Positions 25,367-48,854 are shown, counted from the stretch's first letter. The stretch is DNA of 64,000 bases from a virus (IMGVR_UViG_2925891887_000001), one strand, 5' to 3'. Translations and numbers: made by a program. Notes: generated from the sequence alone by a model not told the origin.

Positions 25367-25490
25367 TTAAGCCCCCCCTATGTACCTATCATTAAACCTT
25401 TACACCGCAGCCGTAGGCATTTAGGCTATATCACATATAAGAAAACAAGTTGTTTCAGACGATAATTATATACGCAAAGGGAACTCTCCA

Positions 25491-29198: not shown

Positions 29199-29219
29199 CT
29201 AATACTAGAAAACAATTTG

Positions 29220-29232
29220 TTTAAAAAACAAA
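29220..29232. promoter_or_regulatory. AAACAATTTGTTT palindrome upstream of the helicase gene
   Basis: 13-bp perfect palindrome; near-identical copies at 48876-48888, 57309-57321, 42839-42852 and 25442-25455, each 20-45 bp upstream of a start codon. Confidence 0.5.
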
Positions 29233-29241
29233 GGAAAGCAC

Positions 29242-36672: not shown

Positions 36673-36871
36673 ACGGGAGAAGGAAACGCTTCATGAAATC
36701 AGTAAGTGGCCGGAGTTCCCTGAGTACTGGAAGCCTAAAACGCGAGCTAAGTTAGAGCGTTTAGGGTTGGTTGCAAACGTTTCTGAAACGTGGTGTTCGG
36801 CCAACTACCAGTTAACTGATAAAGGGAAAGTATTGCTACAGCAATTAGTAGAATCAGGAGTGTTAAAATGA
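36656..36871 (+). CDS. hypothetical small protein
   Basis: 71-aa ORF with AAGGAG RBS. Confidence 0.5.
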   Translation: MIVLSKREKETLHEISKWPEFPEYWKPKTRAKLERLGLVANVSETWCSANYQLTDKGKVLLQQLVESGVLK

Positions 36872-37020
36872 TTCCATACATCTCATTAGCTTTTATGGGT
36901 GGCTTCCTTATCGGCTTCGGCATCTGTCGTGATTTAGTTAAGCAGGAACTTAAAACCAAAACACTGTGCATCGGAAAGCGTGTGTATCGGGTAGTTCATG
37001 AAACAAAGGTGAAAAAATGA
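36868..37020 (+). CDS. small membrane protein (50 aa), paralogue of 36493..36672
   Basis: ATG overlapping upstream stop; TM helix followed by a shared basic motif (RVYRVVHETK versus RIYRIVEITN). Confidence 0.4.
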   Translation: MIPYISLAFMGGFLIGFGICRDLVKQELKTKTLCIGKRVYRVVHETKVKK

Positions 37021-37338: not shown

Positions 37339-38085
37339 TTTTGTGTATAAGATGACTTTGTTTTCGTTGAGACGCGACTGTTTGAACTTAAATACAAGTG
37401 CAAACGAAGAAGTCTATCTGGCAGTAGCCTAATAAGCCAAACACCAGCGAGGTCAGTTTCCAGCCTCGTTACCGAAATGGGACACACTGAGCGAGTGTGA
37501 TTGCAGAACGCAGGAGGGAACATTCATGTTCCCTCCGATGAAGTAACAGAATGGGCGGTTGGTATATTTTCAACTCCATATGACTCCCGGATTCTTAGCC
37601 ACTGACCGCCCATCCTGTTACGTCATTTTGTTCAATTATGTCGTTTATACTGGGTTAAAAAGCGGCGACGTAGCCCGGCTGGTATGGTTAGCCAGCACAC
37701 AACGTTGAGGCCATTACATTTTTATCAATTCTAAGGTTCTATTCACAGAGATACCGGCGAGCGTTGATATGTAACATGTTGGGCAAACATTCAATCGGAG
37801 TAGTGGCCTCAACGTTGTGAAGACGGGATTGTTGTGTAGGTTTAACCACTGTTGCCATTGGTGCCTGTTTTCACAACAAATGATTCCATACATCACATTG
37901 TATAAATTACAAAGTAGGTGCTGTCCTCAGAAACATCATCTACTTAAAGATTTTGCCTTCTACTATTGAGCGAAGTCGAAAGCGTCTGGCACTAACGAAA
38001 AGTGCAAGTAGCGGTGCGTTTCCTGGCAGAAACTAAACCGTCGCGATTGGCACTGTTGAGTAATAAATACTGGCAGTGCTGAATT

Positions 38086-38931: not shown

Positions 38932-40194
38932 TTACTTTGCATAGTCGCCCAATTTTAATATTTCGCGCTTATATTCATTAACCATGCTACTGGATTCAGT
39001 ATAAATTCGATTTAAAAGATTATCGTTATCTTTATTTTCATTTATCTTAATTAGTGCTAATTTATATTCATAGTCATCAAATGCCACAATTAAATGGTGG
39101 CCTGGGATTATATCTTCGTCACTCTTAAAGTATATATCTTCAAGTATGTAATCTAGTTGATTAGATTTTCTTTTCTCGATGTAATCTTCAGCCATAGCTA
39201 TTACATCATTCCTGTCATTTAACCTGTTTTTTTCGGAAGGCACATCTTCGTAATGTTGCACGATTGAACAACCAATAAGGCGTGGGATGTAAACGTCAAA
39301 ATGAGTAACTCTATCATTCGCGGTTTTAAGTAGTTCCTCAAAGTAGTTTCTTACATGTAAAGGCAACTTCTCAAAGTAATCATTAATTATAGGAGAACAA
39401 GGAGTTTTATAATTCATAAGAACCGACGGTACGAGCTTTGGGTGTCGAAACATCCAGTCCCTTTTAACGTCCGATGGAACATAATAACTTTTAATGATAT
39501 TATCAAAATAATTTATCATTCGAGATTTGAATATTTTGTTGAATCTAAGGTTTATGAATGTATCCAGATAAGGCATATTTGAATAAGCATCATCAAAAAA
39601 TATTTCATCATTGAAAAAATCATATTTATTCAATAAACAACACAGTTTTTCCGAATTAATATGTTCACAATAATCGATTTTTAATCCAAAGATAGCAATG
39701 ATCAACTTCATCTGAGGTGGGATTTTAAAAATTAATTGTGACACATACGCTCTTTTTTCCTTGAGACATTCCCCATCAATATAAAATGAACCATCCACAT
39801 ACTCAAATATATTAATAATATGCTTCACATACTGTATTACCTCATGCTGTCTTACCAATGGATAATATAGTCTATGTAACTCATCGCTGTTTAAATTAAT
39901 TTTGTGTTTATCGATAATTTGTTTTGCAAGAAGACATAACTCATCATGTTGATTTAATAAGGAATCAAACCATTGTTTAAATGCACTCTTTCGCATTTCG
40001 AACAATGATTCAGTTGTTAATTGAAGGGCTGAAAAAGCTGCTTTTGCACTTTTTCTCGCTTCGTAGGCATTCCATGCTGTTGCTATAAAAGCAAATGCTG
40101 TAGCCAATGTTCCAACAGTTTGACCATTTAAAACAACCCAATCCCAAAAAATGACGGTGAGCAGTAGTATAATAATGAAAATTAAAAAAGGCAT
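38932..40194 (-). CDS. AT-rich membrane-anchored protein of unknown function (cargo gene)
   Basis: 420-aa ORF, two N-terminal hydrophobic helices, strongly AT-rich, adjacent to tRNAs and an integrase. Confidence 0.55.
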   Translation of the reverse strand: MPFLIFIIILLLTVIFWDWVVLNGQTVGTLATAFAFIATAWNAYEARKSAKAAFSALQLTTESLFEMRKSAFKQWFDSLLNQHDELCLLAKQIIDKHKINLNSDELHRLYYPLVRQHEVIQYVKHIINIFEYVDGSFYIDGECLKEKRAYVSQLIFKIPPQMKLIIAIFGLKIDYCEHINSEKLCCLLNKYDFFNDEIFFDDAYSNMPYLDTFINLRFNKIFKSRMINYFDNIIKSYYVPSDVKRDWMFRHPKLVPSVLMNYKTPCSPIINDYFEKLPLHVRNYFEELLKTANDRVTHFDVYIPRLIGCSIVQHYEDVPSEKNRLNDRNDVIAMAEDYIEKRKSNQLDYILEDIYFKSDEDIIPGHHLIVAFDDYEYKLALIKINENKDNDNLLNRIYTESSSMVNEYKREILKLGDYAK

Positions 40195-40368
40195 GTATGT
40201 ATTTCACTCTACTAACTATAAAATATTAGGCTAATGTTAACCAAACAATGCCTTAATTAATAGATTGATCGAGGCTTTAATAGCTTTATAATGCAGACTT
40301 TAAAGATAAGTATGCACATACCTATCTTCTTTGTAAGTAAAGTTGCATATCAATTCTATGAGGTAACA

Positions 40369-40614
40369 ATGACGATCACTATCTACGGACGAGATAACTG
40401 CTCATACTGCAAACGTGCGGTCGAGCTGGCGAAGCAACTAAAGGGACATGGCTACGGTGATTATGAGTACATCGACATCACCACTGCCGGTATCGACAAG
40501 GAAAAACTAAGTGAAATTGTTGGTAAACCGGTAGAGACTATCCCCCAAGTGCTGATCGATGGCCAACCGATTGGCGGATACACAGAACTGGCTGCATACG
40601 TCAGCACCCTCTGA
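40369..40614 (+). CDS. glutaredoxin-like protein (NrdH/NrdC-like, CxxC)
   Basis: MTITIYGRDNCSYCKRA... with GAGGT RBS; about 81 aa; followed by a terminator. Confidence 0.7.
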   Translation: MTITIYGRDNCSYCKRAVELAKQLKGHGYGDYEYIDITTAGIDKEKLSEIVGKPVETIPQVLIDGQPIGGYTELAAYVSTL

Positions 40615-40632
40615 TTTTAACGGCTCACAGGA
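40611..40632 (+). terminator. Rho-independent terminator
   Basis: CGGCTC-ACAG-GAGCCG hairpin followed by TTTTTA. Confidence 0.65.
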
Positions 40633-40824
40633 GCCGTTTTTATTCCCACCAAACTCACTCCCGTTTCCCTTAAAATTCAAAAAACAACGTCAAAATGATT
40701 CCATACCTACTATGTATGGAATCATTACTGAAAATGAGTTACTTTTACTCTTGATCCTATAAGAATCTATGCCTAATATACTGTTTACTTATACAGTAAA
40801 TCGGCGTAACTCGGTGATTGTCAT

Positions 40825-41928
40825 ATGAAAAATAGCTTTGACAGAGCACGCGCTGCGGAGAACACCTCAAAAGAGGCGATTGAGTATCTCGAAAGAGCAT
40901 CTCAAATGCAGGCCGTTATGATCTCGCAGGTCAGCAATGACATGAGATTCTCGGACGCATTCATGTTATTCACTCGCTTATCTCTGCTGATAACAAGACG
41001 TCGGCCAGAGATCGCTGTTCATTGTATTTTGATACATGTTTTGCCGCACATTGCCGATGTAAAAGTAAGTGACATTAATAGGTTCATGGTGAACCAACTG
41101 GTCAACCCACTAATACTGGATGGCAAAATTGTTATGGGCCGCCGCGTTTTCTCTCTGATGAAGCAGTTCCTTAGCTGGTGCGCCTTCCAGGGGATGATAG
41201 ACGTGTCACCGTTAAACGATATGTCACTAAACAAAGTTGCCGGTGGCGCAAAGCCCACACCTCGCGAGCGGAAGCTGACCGACGCAGAGGTATGGGTGTT
41301 CTGGAATATATGGGACTACTTCAATGTGTGCGCTGGTACAAAATGGGCGGCCAGGCTGTGTCTTGTATCCGCAAGACGACCTGACGAAGTACTGCGGGCT
41401 AAAAAAAGTGAGTTCAATCTTAAGCGTGGGGTTTGGAATCAAGGCAAGAGGAACAAATCTGCCCGTGAGCATTCGCTGCCTTTAAGCACATTAATGCGCA
41501 CATGTATTGAAGAGTTGTTCGAATACGGTAAAGGCAGCCAGTGGCTCGTGCCTTCGAATAAAAAAATCGGGAAAGACCTTCCTATGTCTAAAGTGGCAAT
41601 AGCCCAGGCATTACGTCGTATCCTGGAACGACCAGAACTGATGGAGCTTGAGCCATTTACACCCCGAGACTTGCGCCGTACTGCGCGTAGTTACTTCCCA
41701 GCATTAGGCATAAGCCAGGAGGTCTCACGCAAAATCATGAACCACAGTCTTGAGGGGATAGATCGAGTCTACGACCGGCACGATTATATGGACGAGATGC
41801 GAGACGCCTTAGAAAGTTTCTCGACGTACATCGCATCAATCGTAGAGCAACCGGATTTAGACGAAATTGACCACAAATTCAAGGGAGATCGTCTATCAAC
41901 AGAGCTTATTCGTGTAAATTTTTCATAG
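40825..41928 (+). CDS. tyrosine recombinase/integrase
   Basis: C-terminal catalytic signature (RDLRRTARSY ... HS..G.DRVYDRHDY); 367 aa. Confidence 0.75.
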   Translation: MKNSFDRARAAENTSKEAIEYLERASQMQAVMISQVSNDMRFSDAFMLFTRLSLLITRRRPEIAVHCILIHVLPHIADVKVSDINRFMVNQLVNPLILDGKIVMGRRVFSLMKQFLSWCAFQGMIDVSPLNDMSLNKVAGGAKPTPRERKLTDAEVWVFWNIWDYFNVCAGTKWAARLCLVSARRPDEVLRAKKSEFNLKRGVWNQGKRNKSAREHSLPLSTLMRTCIEELFEYGKGSQWLVPSNKKIGKDLPMSKVAIAQALRRILERPELMELEPFTPRDLRRTARSYFPALGISQEVSRKIMNHSLEGIDRVYDRHDYMDEMRDALESFSTYIASIVEQPDLDEIDHKFKGDRLSTELIRVNFS

Positions 41929-42309
41929 AGACTTTATGGCCTCAACAACCTTTTGTGATGCGCCTTTCTCTTTACCGAATCGCTCGTTATATGCAGCAAG
42001 AACCTGTTTTTCGTCCTCGTTAAGAGGAGCGGTGCCTTCTTTGTATAAAAATGCTGCGAGTTCAGGTTGGCGTTCTTCCAGCACCATCATCATAAGACGA
42101 CTTGGCTCAATACCCAGCGCCAGCGCCAACGGACGAACCTTATCGATAGGCAAAGGAATTTTGCCACTTTTAATTAAAGAAAGGTTGTTGGCATTTTTAT
42201 AACCAATAAGTCTGGCTATTTGGGCCTGACTCATAGGTGAGGATTCAATCAGCCCTGCGATAAAAGCGGCATAGCGACTTTCTATAAATTCAATCTTGTT
42301 GTCAGACAT
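41923..42309 (-). CDS. HTH (XRE-family) transcriptional regulator
   Basis: Helix-turn-helix segment QAQIARLIGYKNANNLSLIKSGK; divergent from 42560..42772 across an AT-rich intergenic region. Confidence 0.65.
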   Translation of the reverse strand: MSDNKIEFIESRYAAFIAGLIESSPMSQAQIARLIGYKNANNLSLIKSGKIPLPIDKVRPLALALGIEPSRLMMMVLEERQPELAAFLYKEGTAPLNEDEKQVLAAYNERFGKEKGASQKVVEAIKSL

Positions 42310-42559
42310 TGTTACAACCTTTGCGCGTTCAATTCTCTCTGGTAAGTGCTTACCGATATTACATCAAAGGTTAGGGTTGTAAAGCTATTATCATTTTTTC
42401 GATAGGCACTTAAAAGACCGGTTAAAGGCCATTGCACGGAGAAAAATTAGCCCAAAACAGGTAAGAAAATTAACTTGCATATGATATGAATGTATTCAGT
42501 ATTGATATAAATTTTAGTAGTATTCCTTACCATAGTATAAGTTAGAATGGATTGATTGA

Positions 42560-42772
42560 ATGAACACCACTATTTCCAGCCTAATCGCTCTTGAGATCGG
42601 ACACGTACAGAAATTAGCTGATGAGTGTGTAGCTGACATCCTCACCGATCTACCGAATGAGCAGATTCAGGTTGGTGTGAATGACACAACTGGCTTTATA
42701 TTCGAACTTAACAACAAACGCTTCACGCTTCTCAATATCGGCTCCGGGTCTTTAGCCGTCAGAATCTGTTAA
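42560..42772 (+). CDS. hypothetical small protein
   Basis: 70-aa ORF divergent from the HTH regulator gene. Confidence 0.4.
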   Translation: MNTTISSLIALEIGHVQKLADECVADILTDLPNEQIQVGVNDTTGFIFELNNKRFTLLNIGSGSLAVRIC

Positions 42773-42870
42773 CCCCTCTTCTCCCTGCGCGAATGGCTTA
42801 GTTCCCTGTTCGCGCAGTGCTACATTAAACACACTAGTAAATAATTTGTTTTCATAACAAAGGATTAGCC

Positions 42871-44979
42871 ATGTCTAAAAAACGTTCCATCAAAGAGGTT
42901 CAGGACTTCCGTGACAGTGTAAAACGAGTAGTCGCTCTCCTTTCAGGTAAAAACATCCCTGTTGCAGAACGAGGGGACGACGCTTATGTACGCTATAACG
43001 ATGATGGAGAGCCAATTCTCGTAAACATCCCATCAATCCCGGATAACGCAACACCGGCATTGATGAATGCTGTGCGCGGATTTCTCGATCATGAGGTTGC
43101 TCACATTTTGTTTACCGATATTCGTGTGTCCAACAAAATGAGAGAAAAAGGACGCGTTCCTTCCTGGTCGCTATGGAATGCCTTAGAAGACGTGTTCATC
43201 GAGCGAAAAATGGGTCAGGTCTTTAACGGAACAAGACGTAATCTGATGGCAACTCAGCGCCTTATAATCGAAAAAGTCTTTAAACCAAAGGCTTCAGAGG
43301 CTATTGCTTATTGTGGCAAAGATCAGCGCGCGCTTTTTCTAAACTTCTTTCTCTGTCCGGTTGTAAGAGCCTGGGATGGCCAAGCACCGTTCGTAGATTT
43401 CATGGATGAACATTGGCCTGTCATTGAGAAACCAATTTCATTATTAAAAGAACATGGTATCGATGTGGCCGTGCGTAACATGTCTTGCACCGAGGATTGT
43501 GTAAAGGTGGCTGCGACCATAGCTAAGATCCTCAAAGACACTGAAAGTGAAAGCAAAGGTAAGGAGTCAGCTCCGGGAAAAACTTCCGATCCTTCAGACG
43601 CTGACCAGACGGATGCCTCTGGAGAAAACAATGAAGACAACGAAGATCATGAGACTCCCTCAGTGTTAGATAATCACAAATCTATCAAATCAGAATCACA
43701 TAGTAAGTACAAACATGATAATAACAACAGTGATGATTCAGATAATTCTGAATCATCAGAAACAATATTCGATGATACAGAAAATGATAAAGAGGTATCA
43801 GATTCTGATGCTTCTGATAACGCGGCGTCAGAATCATTAACCGCTGACCACGAAAAAAGAAAAACGACAGAAGACGGCTCTTCAGATATCCCAACTCCGT
43901 CAAAAATGAGTCTGGAAGAGGCTTTAGAGGAGCTGGATAGCATAGAAGATGAAGTCGGAGGCATGACAGAAGATGCTCTATCCGAAACGATTAAAAGCGA
44001 GTTAACAGAAAGCTCGAAAAGCGAATACAGGCCATACAATCGCTCATACGACTTCATCGGCTCGATTGATCAGGCAGAAGCCCATATCAAACGGCTTATT
44101 AAAACATTCTCCGATATTGATTTGGGAGGATATCCAATCAGCCGCTATCGCATCGTTCCTGAAGGCAACCAGCTCTTCGACAAATATATTGAAAAGCATC
44201 TTTCGTCAGGTGTTTCGTCGACGCTGGCAAAAGACCTGGAGCGAGCAATAGCAAGCAGAAACAGAGTTCAGTTTATACCGGGCCAGCGTCGGGGGCGCAT
44301 TCATGGTTCTAGTATCTACAGATTAGCAATGAATGATGCTCGCGTGTTTCGTAAAAAAGAAGAATCTAAAGCCGTTAACGCCTGTGTTCAACAAGTGATT
44401 GATTTATCAGGTTCAATGAGTGGTATAACGATTAAACTGGCTCTTGCAAGTGCATATACCATCGCCGATGCCCTTGATCGAATAAATGTTCCCAACATTA
44501 TCACTGGCTTCACTACATTTGGTAGTCATATGGCGGCAGGAGAACTTAAGGCTGTCAAGTATGAGTTCTCTCGCTTTGAATCTTTAATGCTACCTATCAT
44601 CAAAAATTGGAATGAAAAGGTAAATTCTCGCGAAGTTCGCTCACGTATGGGGTGCGTAGGCTACACATTCCCACTTCTTAATAACGTGGATGGTGAAAGC
44701 ATAGCCAGCCTTGCATCGTTATTTTCCGGTCGCATGGAGGACAGGAAGATCATGCTTGTTCTGAGTGATGGCGCGCCGTGGGCTGTTGGGAGAGGTTTTG
44801 ACGCTCATTTGCGTTCAGTTGCGAAGCAAATTGAAACGCAGACTGATATTGATTTGATGGCAATTGGCATCATGACTGACGCACCGGAGAGATTTTACTC
44901 AAATCATGCCCTGGTAACGAGCGTTGATAGTCTTGGTTCATCTGTAGTTACTGAACTATCTCGTATCATTTTAAAGTGA
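42871..44979 (+). CDS. von Willebrand factor A (vWA) domain protein with acidic Asp/Glu/Ser-rich linker (CobT-like)
   Basis: MIDAS motif DLSGSMSG in the C-terminal part; long acidic low-complexity segment; paired with the downstream AAA+ gene. Confidence 0.65.
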   Translation: MSKKRSIKEVQDFRDSVKRVVALLSGKNIPVAERGDDAYVRYNDDGEPILVNIPSIPDNATPALMNAVRGFLDHEVAHILFTDIRVSNKMREKGRVPSWSLWNALEDVFIERKMGQVFNGTRRNLMATQRLIIEKVFKPKASEAIAYCGKDQRALFLNFFLCPVVRAWDGQAPFVDFMDEHWPVIEKPISLLKEHGIDVAVRNMSCTEDCVKVAATIAKILKDTESESKGKESAPGKTSDPSDADQTDASGENNEDNEDHETPSVLDNHKSIKSESHSKYKHDNNNSDDSDNSESSETIFDDTENDKEVSDSDASDNAASESLTADHEKRKTTEDGSSDIPTPSKMSLEEALEELDSIEDEVGGMTEDALSETIKSELTESSKSEYRPYNRSYDFIGSIDQAEAHIKRLIKTFSDIDLGGYPISRYRIVPEGNQLFDKYIEKHLSSGVSSTLAKDLERAIASRNRVQFIPGQRRGRIHGSSIYRLAMNDARVFRKKEESKAVNACVQQVIDLSGSMSGITIKLALASAYTIADALDRINVPNIITGFTTFGSHMAAGELKAVKYEFSRFESLMLPIIKNWNEKVNSREVRSRMGCVGYTFPLLNNVDGESIASLASLFSGRMEDRKIMLVLSDGAPWAVGRGFDAHLRSVAKQIETQTDIDLMAIGIMTDAPERFYSNHALVTSVDSLGSSVVTELSRIILK

Positions 44980-46490: not shown

Positions 46491-48854
46491 ATGAAGGCAC
46501 TGATGGTTCGAACTGACTTCTCACTTGGGGAGTCGGCTCTAAAAGCAGAAAACGCGGTGAAGATTGCCAGAGAAGCTGGCTACACCGCTGTAATTTCAGC
46601 AGATAGCATGAATATTGCGAGCGTTATTCCACTACAACGTGCCGCTGGTGACGACATGGCGGTTATTTGTGGTGTGAAACTAAACATTGTTGATGATCCC
46701 ACATACGAGCACCGGGCTAAACTTGCTAAAGAATCTATGAGATGTATGGAATCATTAGAGCGAGGACGTAACTACTCGTTTACCGCTCTAATTAAAAATG
46801 AGAAAGGATATCGCGACATCTGCGAACTAATGACGGCGGCCAACACACGAGAACAGTTCTACTTTGTACCGCGTCTCTCGCTCGAACAGTTGGTTTCTAC
46901 ATATGCCAAAGGCAACATCATCCTGCTTACTTCCGACATCGGTAGCGTGTTCCAACGCAACGATTTTGCAAAAATCATAAGCACACTGATTACAGCGGGT
47001 GGAAAAGACAACTTCTATAGTGTGGTTTATCCGCACCCTACCCCATTCTACGACCAGATTAACGTCCGGGCGATGAAAGTCGCCAGCGCATTGAAAATAG
47101 AGCCAGTGGCGTTCTATCCCGCTTATTACGAATCGATCGACGATGCAGACATTAAAGACATTGCGCACATGGTTACGAACAACATCAAAATCGACCAGCC
47201 GCATCGTCTGCGTATCCCCCACCAGCGAGATAACGCCGTCAATGGTCGCCGCCATCTCCTTGAGGCGCTTAAAGCCTTCTCCGTTCGCATGGATGTGCCG
47301 GTAACAGCTGCAATGGCCTCAACAACGCAGGATACCATTATCGATGCCTGCACATGGCGCTGGCATGAATTGCCGCCAGCACTGCCAAAGATGGCAGACG
47401 ACGAGCCTGCAACGCTGATGAAACTGGCTGTTGCAGGGCTGCGTAAACGTCTTACCACAAAAGAGTTTGGCTACACACCACCTGCTTCTGAGAACAGGGT
47501 TTATGTTGAGCGGCTAAAGTACGAAATGGACACGCTGACTCGCCTGGGATTCTGTGGTTACTTCCTGATGGTGCGCGATCTGATGAATCATAGTCGTGAA
47601 ACTGGCATTCCCGTTGGGCCTGGTCGTGGTTCCTCTGCCGGTTCTCTGGTGGCGTGGTGCATAGGCATAACCAACGTCGACCCAATCCGTCACGGTCTTC
47701 TGTTTGAGCGTTTCATCAACCCTGAGCGTCTCGACTTGCCGGATGCGGACTTGGACTTCAGCCAGGCACGTCGCCATGAGGTGATCGAGTATCTGAATGA
47801 ACGCTACGGCGAAGATTACGTTGCAGGCATTCCGAACTTCACCTACCTGGGCGCAGCCTCTGCACTACGTGATACCGCTCGTATTTATGGTGTGGAGTCC
47901 GCAGATATGGCGGTATCAAAAGAGCTGAAGAACGTCGAGGATGATAGCCTTCCATTGGAGGAGCTGCGCGAACAACTGGCAAGTCTCGACAAATACGCAA
48001 CAAAATATCCTGATGCATTCAATGCAGCCTGCAAGTTACAAAGCCTTATGCGTGGCTTTGGTAGACATGCGGCAGGGATGATCGTAGCAGGTGTTCCTCT
48101 GACAGAACGTACACCGGTTGAACGCCGTGGTGACGCGCGTTGTATCGCATTTGACAAGCGTTACTGCGAGGCTATGGGCCTAATTAAGCTGGACGTGCTT
48201 GGCCTGGCAACTCTCGATTTGCTCGATAGTGCAAAACGCTACATAAAAGAGAACACAGGTGAAGATATCAATCTTGATGCCATTTCTCTTGAAGATCGCA
48301 AGGTGCTGGATGGTTTTGCTGCAGGGTATACACAGGGCGTATTCCAGCTTGAATCAGGCCCAATGCGCAAGCTGCTTAAAGATTTAGGTGGTGGAATTGA
48401 GCCAATGAGCTTTAAAACGGTCGTCGCTACAACTGCGCTCTTCCGACCTGGCCCGATTCAATCCGGCATGTTGGACGATTATGTGTCCGTGGCCAAAGGC
48501 TTCATGGCCCCACATTCCTTACACCCAATGCTGGACGACATCTCTCGCGACACAAACGGAGTTCTGATTTATCAGGAACAGATCATGGCTGCTACGCGAA
48601 TCTTGGCGGGGTTCTCAATGGCGGAAGCAGACTCGGTCAGGAAAGCGATCGGGAAAAAAGATATGGAGAAAATGAAATCCATTGGCGGCGACTTCATTAA
48701 GCGAGCGGAGGAAGGCTGGGTGACAGTGTCACTGGATGATGGTTCTACGAGAAAAATCCATAAAGCAGCACGCCTACTTTGTGCTGATGGTGAGCGTCGC
48801 ACTTATGCCGAAGCAATGGCAATAAATGCCGACATAACGAGCTTCGATATTTGA
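46491..48854 (+). CDS. DNA polymerase III alpha-type (DnaE-like) replicative polymerase, N-terminal part
   Basis: Polymerase core block GRGSSAGSLVAWCIGITNVDPIRHGLLFERFINPER; ORF ends in non-conserved sequence just before the finger-domain motif. Confidence 0.75.
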   Translation: MKALMVRTDFSLGESALKAENAVKIAREAGYTAVISADSMNIASVIPLQRAAGDDMAVICGVKLNIVDDPTYEHRAKLAKESMRCMESLERGRNYSFTALIKNEKGYRDICELMTAANTREQFYFVPRLSLEQLVSTYAKGNIILLTSDIGSVFQRNDFAKIISTLITAGGKDNFYSVVYPHPTPFYDQINVRAMKVASALKIEPVAFYPAYYESIDDADIKDIAHMVTNNIKIDQPHRLRIPHQRDNAVNGRRHLLEALKAFSVRMDVPVTAAMASTTQDTIIDACTWRWHELPPALPKMADDEPATLMKLAVAGLRKRLTTKEFGYTPPASENRVYVERLKYEMDTLTRLGFCGYFLMVRDLMNHSRETGIPVGPGRGSSAGSLVAWCIGITNVDPIRHGLLFERFINPERLDLPDADLDFSQARRHEVIEYLNERYGEDYVAGIPNFTYLGAASALRDTARIYGVESADMAVSKELKNVEDDSLPLEELREQLASLDKYATKYPDAFNAACKLQSLMRGFGRHAAGMIVAGVPLTERTPVERRGDARCIAFDKRYCEAMGLIKLDVLGLATLDLLDSAKRYIKENTGEDINLDAISLEDRKVLDGFAAGYTQGVFQLESGPMRKLLKDLGGGIEPMSFKTVVATTALFRPGPIQSGMLDDYVSVAKGFMAPHSLHPMLDDISRDTNGVLIYQEQIMAATRILAGFSMAEADSVRKAIGKKDMEKMKSIGGDFIKRAEEGWVTVSLDDGSTRKIHKAARLLCADGERRTYAEAMAINADITSFDI

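Follow-up and report, generated by a model that had tools for sequence, protein, structure and literature searches.

The DNA analysed here is viral genome IMGVR_UViG_2925891887_000001; "the window" denotes the whole stretch of 64,000 nucleotides (nt). It is classed as an SSU5-like (pSLy3-type) phage-plasmid and is temperate. The subject of this report is a locus in which a minus-strand gene for a small helix-turn-helix (HTH) regulator faces a small plus-strand open reading frame (ORF) across an AT-rich intergenic region of 250 base pairs (bp). A preliminary description of this DNA had proposed that arrangement, and all of its parts are present. The intergenic region (42310–42559) has 33% G+C, compared with 42–48% in the adjacent kilobases. 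The features of the locus, with their basis in brackets, are as follows; sites without a strand are given by coordinates alone.

41923–42309, minus strand: XRE-type HTH regulator gene, 128 amino acids (aa), candidate prophage repressor (phrog_8, CYRAN_45 orthology)
42341–42354: dyad O1, GGTAAG-TG-CTTACC, candidate operator at the start site of the HTH promoter (dyad and conservation)
42356–42383, minus strand: predicted leftward sigma-70 promoter of the HTH gene, -35 TTTACA, 16-nt spacer, -10 TAATAT (promoter scan)
42399–42416: second site TCGATAGGCACTTAAAAG, resembling O1 and lying upstream of the leftward -35 (matches O1 at 14 of 18 positions)
42460–42465: isolated GGTAAG half-site, preceding the rightward promoter candidates (half-site enrichment)
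42482–42511, plus strand: rightward promoter candidate(s) of the 70-aa ORF, two extended -10-like motifs (sequence motifs, conservation)
42526–42531: isolated CTTACC half-site, closely following the rightward promoter candidates (inverted-pair match)
42560–42772, plus strand: gene for a conserved 70-aa protein, orthologue of CYRAN_46 and here called ORF46 (phrog_2627)
42785–42817, plus strand: RNA hairpin after the small ORF and before cobT, which may end transcripts or act as a barrier (RNAalifold, covariation)
42838–42852, plus strand: degenerate copy TAAATAATTTGTTTT of the dispersed palindrome AAAACAAnTTGTTTA (motif search)
42871–44979, plus strand: gene for a CobT-like VWA protein (Pfam CobT_C 3.3e-82; Cyrano annotation)

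Conservation of the locus

The closest relatives across 40800–43000 are Escherichia phage CMS-2020a (99.4% identity), phage Cyrano (97.6%) and PhiR41_1 (95%). Cyrano is the pLF82 plasmid of E. coli LF82; these relatives are SSU5-like phage-plasmids with a length of ∼108 kb. A tblastn search finds homologues of the HTH protein in 995 plasmid records. Their identity is at least 95% in E. coli, ∼65% in S. Typhi pHCM2 and in Enterobacter and Citrobacter, 64% in Y. pestis pMT1, 57% in Klebsiella, and 38–48% in Acinetobacter and Providencia. An 897-kb contig from Citrobacter amalonaticus carries one homologue, a placement that suggests either a chromosomally integrated element or a misassembly.

We fetched 12 loci for comparison; eight were aligned and four distant ones were compared by ORF maps. 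Gene order in the Enterobacterales loci is recombinase gene (+), HTH gene (−), intergenic region, ∼70-aa ORF (+) and cobT. This order spans E. coli, Y. pestis pMT1, S. Typhi pHCM2, Klebsiella and Providencia, the sole exception being Providencia, in which the ORF map shows no small ORF of 55 aa or longer. Acinetobacter relatives retain the regulator and the small ORF but have lost the convergent arrangement of the recombinase gene. Between the window and pHCM2, pMT1 or Klebsiella, the flanking genes share an identity of only 0.30–0.47 at third codon positions, so neutral (synonymous) sites are near saturation over these distances.

Genes of the window are nearly all on the plus strand and encode tail, lysis, partition and helicase/primase functions, then a tRNA cluster, then the cobT/cobS-like genes and a DNA polymerase. 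The cobT gene, probably the first of its unit, is followed by genes for a CobS-like AAA protein and DNA polymerase III alpha.

A candidate prophage repressor that lacks an S24 domain

The HTH protein is 98.4% identical to CYRAN_45 of Cyrano, annotated as a 'putative repressor', and matches phrog_8 ('transcriptional regulator') at 6.6e-12. Its AlphaFold2 model (predicted local distance difference test score, pLDDT, 77) contains five HTH-domain helices (residues 12–23, 28–34, 41–47, 55–64 and 69–80) and three C-terminal helices. The five-helix domain and the phrog_8 profile place the protein among XRE (Cro/C1-type) regulators. The nearest folds found by Foldseek are C.BclI and C.AhdI (restriction-modification controller proteins), SPC32H Rep, Stl, HigA, the N-terminal domain of lambda cI, and 434 Cro. 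A PDB sequence search gave no match at E up to 1, and NCBIfam has no family for either the HTH protein or the 70-aa protein. Across the family, the recognition-helix segment GYKN-N-LSLIKSGKIPLP hardly varies, which fits an operator that has stayed unchanged.

No S24 peptidase domain was found in the HTH protein with Pfam, PHROGs or NCBIfam, and the C-terminal 48 residues are modelled as the three helices mentioned above. The protein is therefore not a self-cleaving repressor of the LexA/lambda-CI type.

Within the Cyrano genome, CYRAN_45 is the sole XRE-type regulator on the minus strand, and no other candidate for a CI-like repressor was found there. The other minus-strand 'regulator', CYRAN_114, was considered as a rival repressor and set aside as FljA-like. 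The few minus-strand genes of Cyrano are those expressed in the lysogen (PMC9928086). CYRAN_45 itself is transcribed ∼10-fold above the prophage background in Cyrano lysogens, and the authors of that study place it beside the master repressors of other prophages (PMC9928086). The HTH locus is a real and conserved regulatory region and the most probable prophage-repressor locus of the SSU5-like phage-plasmid family, with the word 'repressor' standing as an annotation only.

A conserved dyad at the regulator's own predicted promoter

The dyad GGTAAGTGCTTACC of the preliminary description does exist, one base away from the 42342–42355 reported there. O1 occupies 42341–42354 and has perfect 6-bp arms and a 2-bp spacer. 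By itself it is not statistically significant: 36% of 250-bp shuffles hold a perfect 6-bp-arm dyad with a spacer of 0–4, and such dyads occur at 0.43 per 250 bp across the window. O1 is credible because it is conserved while synonymous sites are near saturation. Among the eight aligned loci, 12 of its 14 columns are invariant, and the block formed by the dyad and the adjacent promoter has 35 of 47 columns invariant versus 10 of 97 in the central intergenic region. The distance from the start of O1 to the HTH start codon is also held, at 30–34 nt in all eight.

The leftward promoter is the only promoter-like match that the scan returned in 41800–43000, and it is kept in 8/8 loci. O1 directly follows the -10 of this promoter and covers the predicted transcription start. 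Since the dyad lies on the HTH gene's own predicted start site, the arrangement predicts negative autoregulation, with the HTH protein acting through O1.

Further operator-like sites and the rightward promoter

Among the other partial dyads of the intergenic region, the second site, TCGATAGGCACTTAAAAG, resembles O1 to a degree (14 of 18 positions) equalled in only 2 of 2000 shuffles. It is kept in the window and Cyrano only; elsewhere just AGGCA is conserved. GGTAAG/CTTACC occurs four times in the 250-bp intergenic region, against 0.48 per kb in the window. GTAAG half-sites are ∼30-fold enriched in the intergenic region, and GTAAGT-like half-sites recur in the equivalent regions of distant loci. 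CTCTGGTAAG (42337–42346) and CTTACCATAG (42526–42535) are 90% complementary, and the CTTACC half-site within the latter (42526–42531) is conserved in the closest relatives only. The evidence for the GGTAAG half-site at 42460–42465 is weak because this copy is degraded in PhiR41_1.

The two rightward -10-like motifs, TGATATGAA at 42482–42490 and TGATATAAA at 42503–42511, lie 21 nt apart, at −78/−80 and −57/−59 relative to the start of the 70-aa ORF. Each is present in 6/8 loci. The downstream motif is one base off in PhiR41_1 and absent in pJN2-26, and it recurs in pCP102. The best O1-like matches at the rightward promoter reach 9–11 of 18 positions, the level of shuffles, and no conserved operator could be defined there. 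Compared with a lambdoid multi-operator layout, the region contains one conserved leftward dyad, one lineage-specific second site and two half-sites near the rightward candidates.

The 70-aa ORF

The 70-aa protein matches phrog_2627 over its full length, and orthologues at the same position share 41–56% identity. Together with the codon-position asymmetry of the ORF, its sequence comparisons identify it as a real gene under purifying selection. No HTH domain was found in the protein with Pfam or NCBIfam. Its predicted structure is an alpha/beta fold, with only 1/5 models confident, and searches with the model returned no DNA-binding or otherwise informative fold. A PDB sequence search gave four matches, none better than E 0.19. 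The protein is not Cro-like. Homology with P1 Coi was tried and rejected (no BLASTP alignment; hhalign probability 0.3%). A toxin-antitoxin pair formed by the HTH gene and the small ORF was likewise rejected: the genes are divergent and not co-transcribed, and the pair is syntenic with replication genes throughout the family.

The hairpin and the region before cobT

The hairpin described downstream of the small ORF has the nine Watson-Crick pairs claimed for it (arms CTGCGCGAA/TTCGCGCAG) and ends at 42817 rather than 42820. Read as plus-strand RNA, the stem gains U.G, G.U and G-C, making 12 pairs in all around a 9-nt loop. A 9-bp stem arises in 0.7% of shuffles of the 98-nt spacer; folding gives a z-score of −2.6. 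The 12-bp stem is also the RNAalifold consensus, with two compensatory pairs (CG/UA and GC/AU) and two changes from wobble to Watson-Crick pairing. Over eight distinct sequences, 95.7% of pair cells remain paired, compared with 25–53% in slid-column controls. The compensatory changes may represent one inherited event. The distant loci pCP102, pINF102.5 and p1502320-2 carry different, unrelated long hairpins at the equivalent place. The tract ahead of the stem is C-rich and G-poor; a role for Rho here would be speculation. An Rfam scan of 40500–43200 returned nothing meaningful (best match RsaH, E 0.87).

The degenerate palindrome copy TAAATAATTTGTTTT lies 21 nt downstream of the hairpin stem and 33 nt ahead of the cobT start, and this copy is conserved in nine loci. 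The window has five copies of AAAACAAnTTGTTTA, of 15 nt each, at 25442, 29209, 42838, 48875 and 57308. Four of them have at most one mismatch, versus 0.12 expected, and the fifth has two. Cyrano has ∼20 copies at up to two mismatches, versus 0–5 in shuffles. Of its 21 matches, 18 have plus-strand orientation; some dozen stand 15–50 nt ahead of a start codon, and an ATAAT-like element is often present 11–16 nt upstream. These look like a family of promoter/operator or 5′ untranslated region sites. The palindrome is unlike O1. Because this dispersed motif precedes cobT, that gene probably begins a transcription unit of its own.

Two further observations concern the sequences around these palindromes. 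A plus-strand motif of the form ..ATAAT..ACAC..AAG-AAAACAAnTTGTTTA lies 28–49 nt before parA, the helicase gene, cobT and two other genes. At 42846–42862, an A/U hairpin (UUUGUU-UUCAU-AACAAA) extends its 3′ arm into the cobT Shine-Dalgarno sequence (AAGGA) and may affect translation initiation; the helicase gene has an equivalent layout at 29216–29235.

The recombinase gene, its lox-like site and a LexA box

On its other side the HTH gene meets the gene for a tyrosine recombinase, which carries three upstream features of interest.

40694–40726: lox-like site AATGATTCCATAC-CTACTAT-GTATGGAATCATT (13-7-13), candidate target of the recombinase, ∼100 bp upstream of the recombinase gene
40751–40780, plus strand: candidate recombinase promoter, -35 TTGATC, 18-nt spacer, -10 TAATAT (read from sequence)
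40779–40798: LexA (SOS) box TACTGTTTACTTATACAGTA, abutting the recombinase -10 and covering the predicted start site
40825–41928, plus strand: tyrosine recombinase ('integrase', int) gene (Pfam Phage_integrase 6.8e-10; phrog_1 1e-46)

With the recombinase, a PDB sequence search at E up to 0.01 gave no match. In the window, the recombinase and HTH genes converge and have 6 nt in common. The tail-to-tail overlap is 6–9 nt in the eight aligned loci, and convergent overlapping ends appear in the four distant ORF maps as well; each transcript must therefore enter the other gene. The hairpin at 42149–42165, within the HTH gene, was considered as a terminator of recombinase transcripts and discarded as not conserved in relatives.

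Both hexamers of the candidate recombinase promoter are kept in the eight loci; they match the consensus at 8/12 positions, below the threshold of the scan. TACTGTTTACTTATACAGTA is the only CTGT-N8-ACAG in the window, and its two perfect arms qualify it by sequence as an SOS box of the E. coli type, TACTGT-N8-ACAGTA. The arms are invariant across the eight loci and the N8 is variable. The box is also found in p1502320-2 and is absent from three distant loci. The Cyrano genome has only two strong LexA boxes, the second of which (Cyrano 89275–89294) precedes CYRAN_98, a gene for an S24-only (HumD/UmuD-like) protein. Neither the window nor the whole Cyrano genome has a LexA box before a small antirepressor-like gene.

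The lox-like site has, by sequence, the structure of a simple loxP/FRT-like site. Its arms are invariant in eight loci and its spacer varies; the arms of the Providencia site change symmetrically, to GACTCCAGAC/GTCTGGAGTC. It is probably a site for dimer resolution or cyclisation of the phage-plasmid. An invertible segment between two such sites was considered and dropped: no second full site was found, single arms only. Three extra exact copies of one arm with its adjacent bases, ATGATTCCATACATC(T/A)CAT, occur with no second arm at 36868–36886 (+), 37880–37898 (+) and 46744–46755 (−). They are much too long for chance, and one is inside the DNA polymerase III alpha gene.

The region beside the recombinase site is a plastic spot. 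The cargo just upstream of the lox-like site differs among close relatives (window 38932–40614 versus Cyrano 40268–40822): the window has a 420-aa minus-strand gene (phrog_18168) and a glutaredoxin gene, and Cyrano has CYRAN_43, the highest-expressed gene of its prophage. Near the equivalent position lie caf1 in pMT1 and a YafO toxin gene in other relatives.

Transcription of the Cyrano locus

Published data for Cyrano (PMC9928086, S1 Table) give RNA levels for the orthologous genes. The values below are log2(FPKM+5), where FPKM is fragments per kilobase per million mapped fragments, from libraries whose strandedness is not established.

int: LB 5.6; 1 h medium 7.9; 6 h medium 6.1; 1 h macrophage 8.9; 6 h macrophage 10.3
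HTH gene: LB 6.6; 1 h medium 9.2; 6 h medium 7.5; 1 h macrophage 10.3; 6 h macrophage 9.9
ORF46: LB 4.3; 1 h medium 7.0; 6 h medium 6.0; 1 h macrophage 8.7; 6 h macrophage 10.8
cobT: LB 2.9; 1 h medium 3.3; 6 h medium 4.0; 1 h macrophage 5.2; 6 h macrophage 5.9
cobS: LB 2.7; 1 h medium 3.5; 6 h medium 3.4; 1 h macrophage 3.9; 6 h macrophage 5.1

Macrophages impose an SOS response, as stated in PMC9928086. In macrophages int RNA rises ∼26-fold, in parallel with CYRAN_98 RNA (both ∼25–30-fold), and bulk HTH RNA does not drop when int RNA increases. Across the hairpin, ORF46 RNA is 13–30 times cobT RNA whenever ORF46 is on, consistent with the hairpin being a barrier or lying at the edge of a unit.

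A probable immunity-type control region and the alternatives

On balance, we believe that the locus is the immunity-type control region of this SSU5-like phage-plasmid. A small XRE-type protein, made from the minus-strand gene in the plasmid-prophage state, would bind GGTAAG-TG-CTTACC as a dimer immediately after its own -10 and thereby limit its own synthesis. It would also hold the divergent rightward promoter low through poorly defined GTAAG-type sites. That promoter would drive a short unit for the 70-aa protein, insulated by the conserved hairpin from the cobT-cobS-dnaE replication genes, and cobT would open a separate unit with a motif common to other early genes. SOS induction would have to reach the repressor indirectly because the repressor lacks a self-cleaving domain. 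Mitomycin C induces 4/5 SSU5-like phage-plasmids tested, and ciprofloxacin induces Cyrano 39-fold (PMC9928086). A 2024 review gives no lysis-lysogeny mechanism for the group.

The preliminary description had suggested a lysogeny or plasmid-state switch, an idea that finds partial support. The temperate nature of the phage-plasmid, the orthology with CYRAN_45, expression in the lysogen and the conserved gene order agree with that idea; the lack of a conserved rightward operator, a small ORF that is not Cro, and ORF46 RNA without virions do not.

Several results weigh against an immunity region of this kind. At the level of the protein, the Pfam HTH_19 match scores 18.9 bits, under the cut-off of 30.2, and the Foldseek E-values are weak, at 6e-3 or higher. 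The literature that we searched, with incomplete coverage, contained no binding or genetic test of the HTH protein. At the level of the DNA, the one robustly conserved dyad sits on the regulator's own promoter and not on the rightward one. The second site and the two half-sites are lineage-specific or have decayed in a 95%-identical relative, and further O1-type operators across the window and Cyrano are not above chance. The hairpin is followed by no U-tract (3′ flank UGCUACAUUAAAC) and the terminator scan had no match there; lacking a U-tract, it is not a canonical intrinsic terminator. The drop in RNA across it could instead come from differential stability or from Rho. At the level of expression, HTH and ORF46 RNA co-vary in four of five conditions, which a simple either/or switch does not predict. 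In macrophages ORF46 RNA goes up ∼90-fold, yet RNA of cobT and of the replication and structural genes remains low, and Cyrano virions were not detected there (PMC9928086). ORF46 RNA can evidently be high without lytic genes or virions, and the promoter pair is therefore not the whole lysis-lysogeny decision.

Alternatively, the HTH protein might be only a local, autoregulated regulator of the recombinase or of the 70-aa gene, e.g., one that tunes dimer resolution at the lox-like site, with lysis-lysogeny decided elsewhere, e.g., by another factor at the AAAACAAnTTGTTTA sites. The sole conserved dyad is indeed on the HTH gene's own promoter, the HTH gene lies tail to tail with the recombinase gene in 12/12 loci examined, lytic genes are not switched on by high ORF46 RNA, and a different palindrome, unlike O1, stands ahead of many early genes. 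However, the Cyrano genome yielded no other CI-like regulator, the HTH gene is expressed in the lysogen, and it faces the replication-gene block, as is usual for immunity repressors. The Acinetobacter relatives, moreover, retain the regulator and small ORF without a convergent recombinase gene. We consider a purely local role unlikely.

Similarly, the 70-aa protein might be the partner of the HTH protein, either an antirepressor with a role like that of P1 Coi or a non-HTH substitute for Cro. The pair would then be the bistable core and the hairpin would merely end a one-gene unit. The two genes are conserved together even in Acinetobacter, and ORF46 RNA overtakes HTH RNA in one condition only, 6 h in macrophages, the point at which genes under SOS control are highest. 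The size of the small gene and its position by the repressor gene also resemble P1 coi, itself beside lox-cre. Nonetheless, the protein has no similarity to Coi, its model (one confident of five) has no informative fold match, no LexA box precedes its ORF, and high ORF46 RNA gave no virions in macrophages. A partnership of this kind seems to us quite improbable.

Finally, the dyad and hairpin could be chance symmetries of an AT-rich spacer, as the 36% of shuffles with a comparable dyad and promoter-like and terminator-like scan matches no more numerous than in shuffles might suggest, but this reading is strongly disfavoured, to the point of being barely tenable, by the invariance of the dyad/promoter block amid near-saturated neighbouring sites, by a hairpin that keeps 95.7% of its pairs with compensatory changes, and by unrelated hairpins at the equivalent position in distant loci.

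Within the favoured reading of an immunity region, the position of the LexA box invites a more specific conjecture, to which we give little credence at present: that SSU5-like phage-plasmids (including pMT1 and pHCM2) sense DNA damage with neither repressor cleavage nor an antirepressor, through antisense transcription and a checkpoint. LexA would repress the promoter of the Cre-like recombinase gene, which shares its 3′ end with that of the convergent repressor gene. Once LexA is cleaved, antisense transcription through the repressor gene would lower repressor synthesis, and a second checkpoint, at the hairpin and the AAAACAAnTTGTTTA sites before cobT and early genes, would gate replication and lytic genes.

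The locus is a conventional type of regulatory region in an element that is already sequenced and annotated, and the repressor role is already annotated in one relative (Cyrano). Regulator homologues with the same neighbourhood occur in ∼1000 sequenced plasmids, among them the S. Typhi plasmid pHCM2, the Y. pestis plasmid pMT1, and phage-plasmids of E. coli, Klebsiella and Enterobacter that carry antibiotic resistance. The candidate operator, promoter pair and SOS entry point provide a small testable map for induction by DNA-damaging antibiotics. Such a map could explain, and perhaps allow manipulation of, the timing with which a plasmid is converted to infectious phage.

Comparison with known systems

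The closest textbook parallel is the lambdoid cI/cro region. As there, a small HTH repressor gene lies opposite to early/replication genes across a short AT-rich region with a dyad, lysogens express the HTH gene, and autoregulation is implied by the dyad at its promoter. Unlike CI, the HTH protein lacks an S24 autocleavage domain. Only a single dyad is conserved, where lambdoid regions have a tripartite operator common to both promoters, the first rightward gene encodes an alpha/beta protein and not an HTH Cro, and a hairpin insulates the replication genes.

Elements such as N15 (AntC), 186 (Tum) and SPC32H (Rep/Ant) likewise combine a repressor without a protease domain with SOS inducibility. 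SPC32H Rep is among the nearest folds of the HTH protein, and LexA boxes are found on the element here as well. In contrast to these LexA-controlled antirepressor systems, the two strong boxes precede the recombinase gene and the S24-only gene, and no antirepressor-like gene. In the pR/pL arrangement of coliphage 186, a case of transcriptional interference between convergent promoters, genes of opposite regulatory meaning also converge and leave no space for a terminator (a 6–9 nt overlap here), but the promoters here are ∼1.6 kb apart versus 62 bp, and bulk HTH RNA shows no fall as int RNA rises.

The immC region of P1 (c1, coi) differs in gene order and orientations. The repressor here is of XRE type, outside the P1 C1 family, the 70-aa protein does not resemble Coi, and the dispersed palindrome is unlike the repressor's own dyad. 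Both elements are nonetheless phage-plasmids in which the repressor gene lies beside a gene for a Cre-like recombinase and a site with 13-bp inverted repeats, and in which a gene of ∼70 aa adjoins the repressor gene. Moreover, a second palindrome is scattered before many genes of the present element, as C1 operators are in P1.

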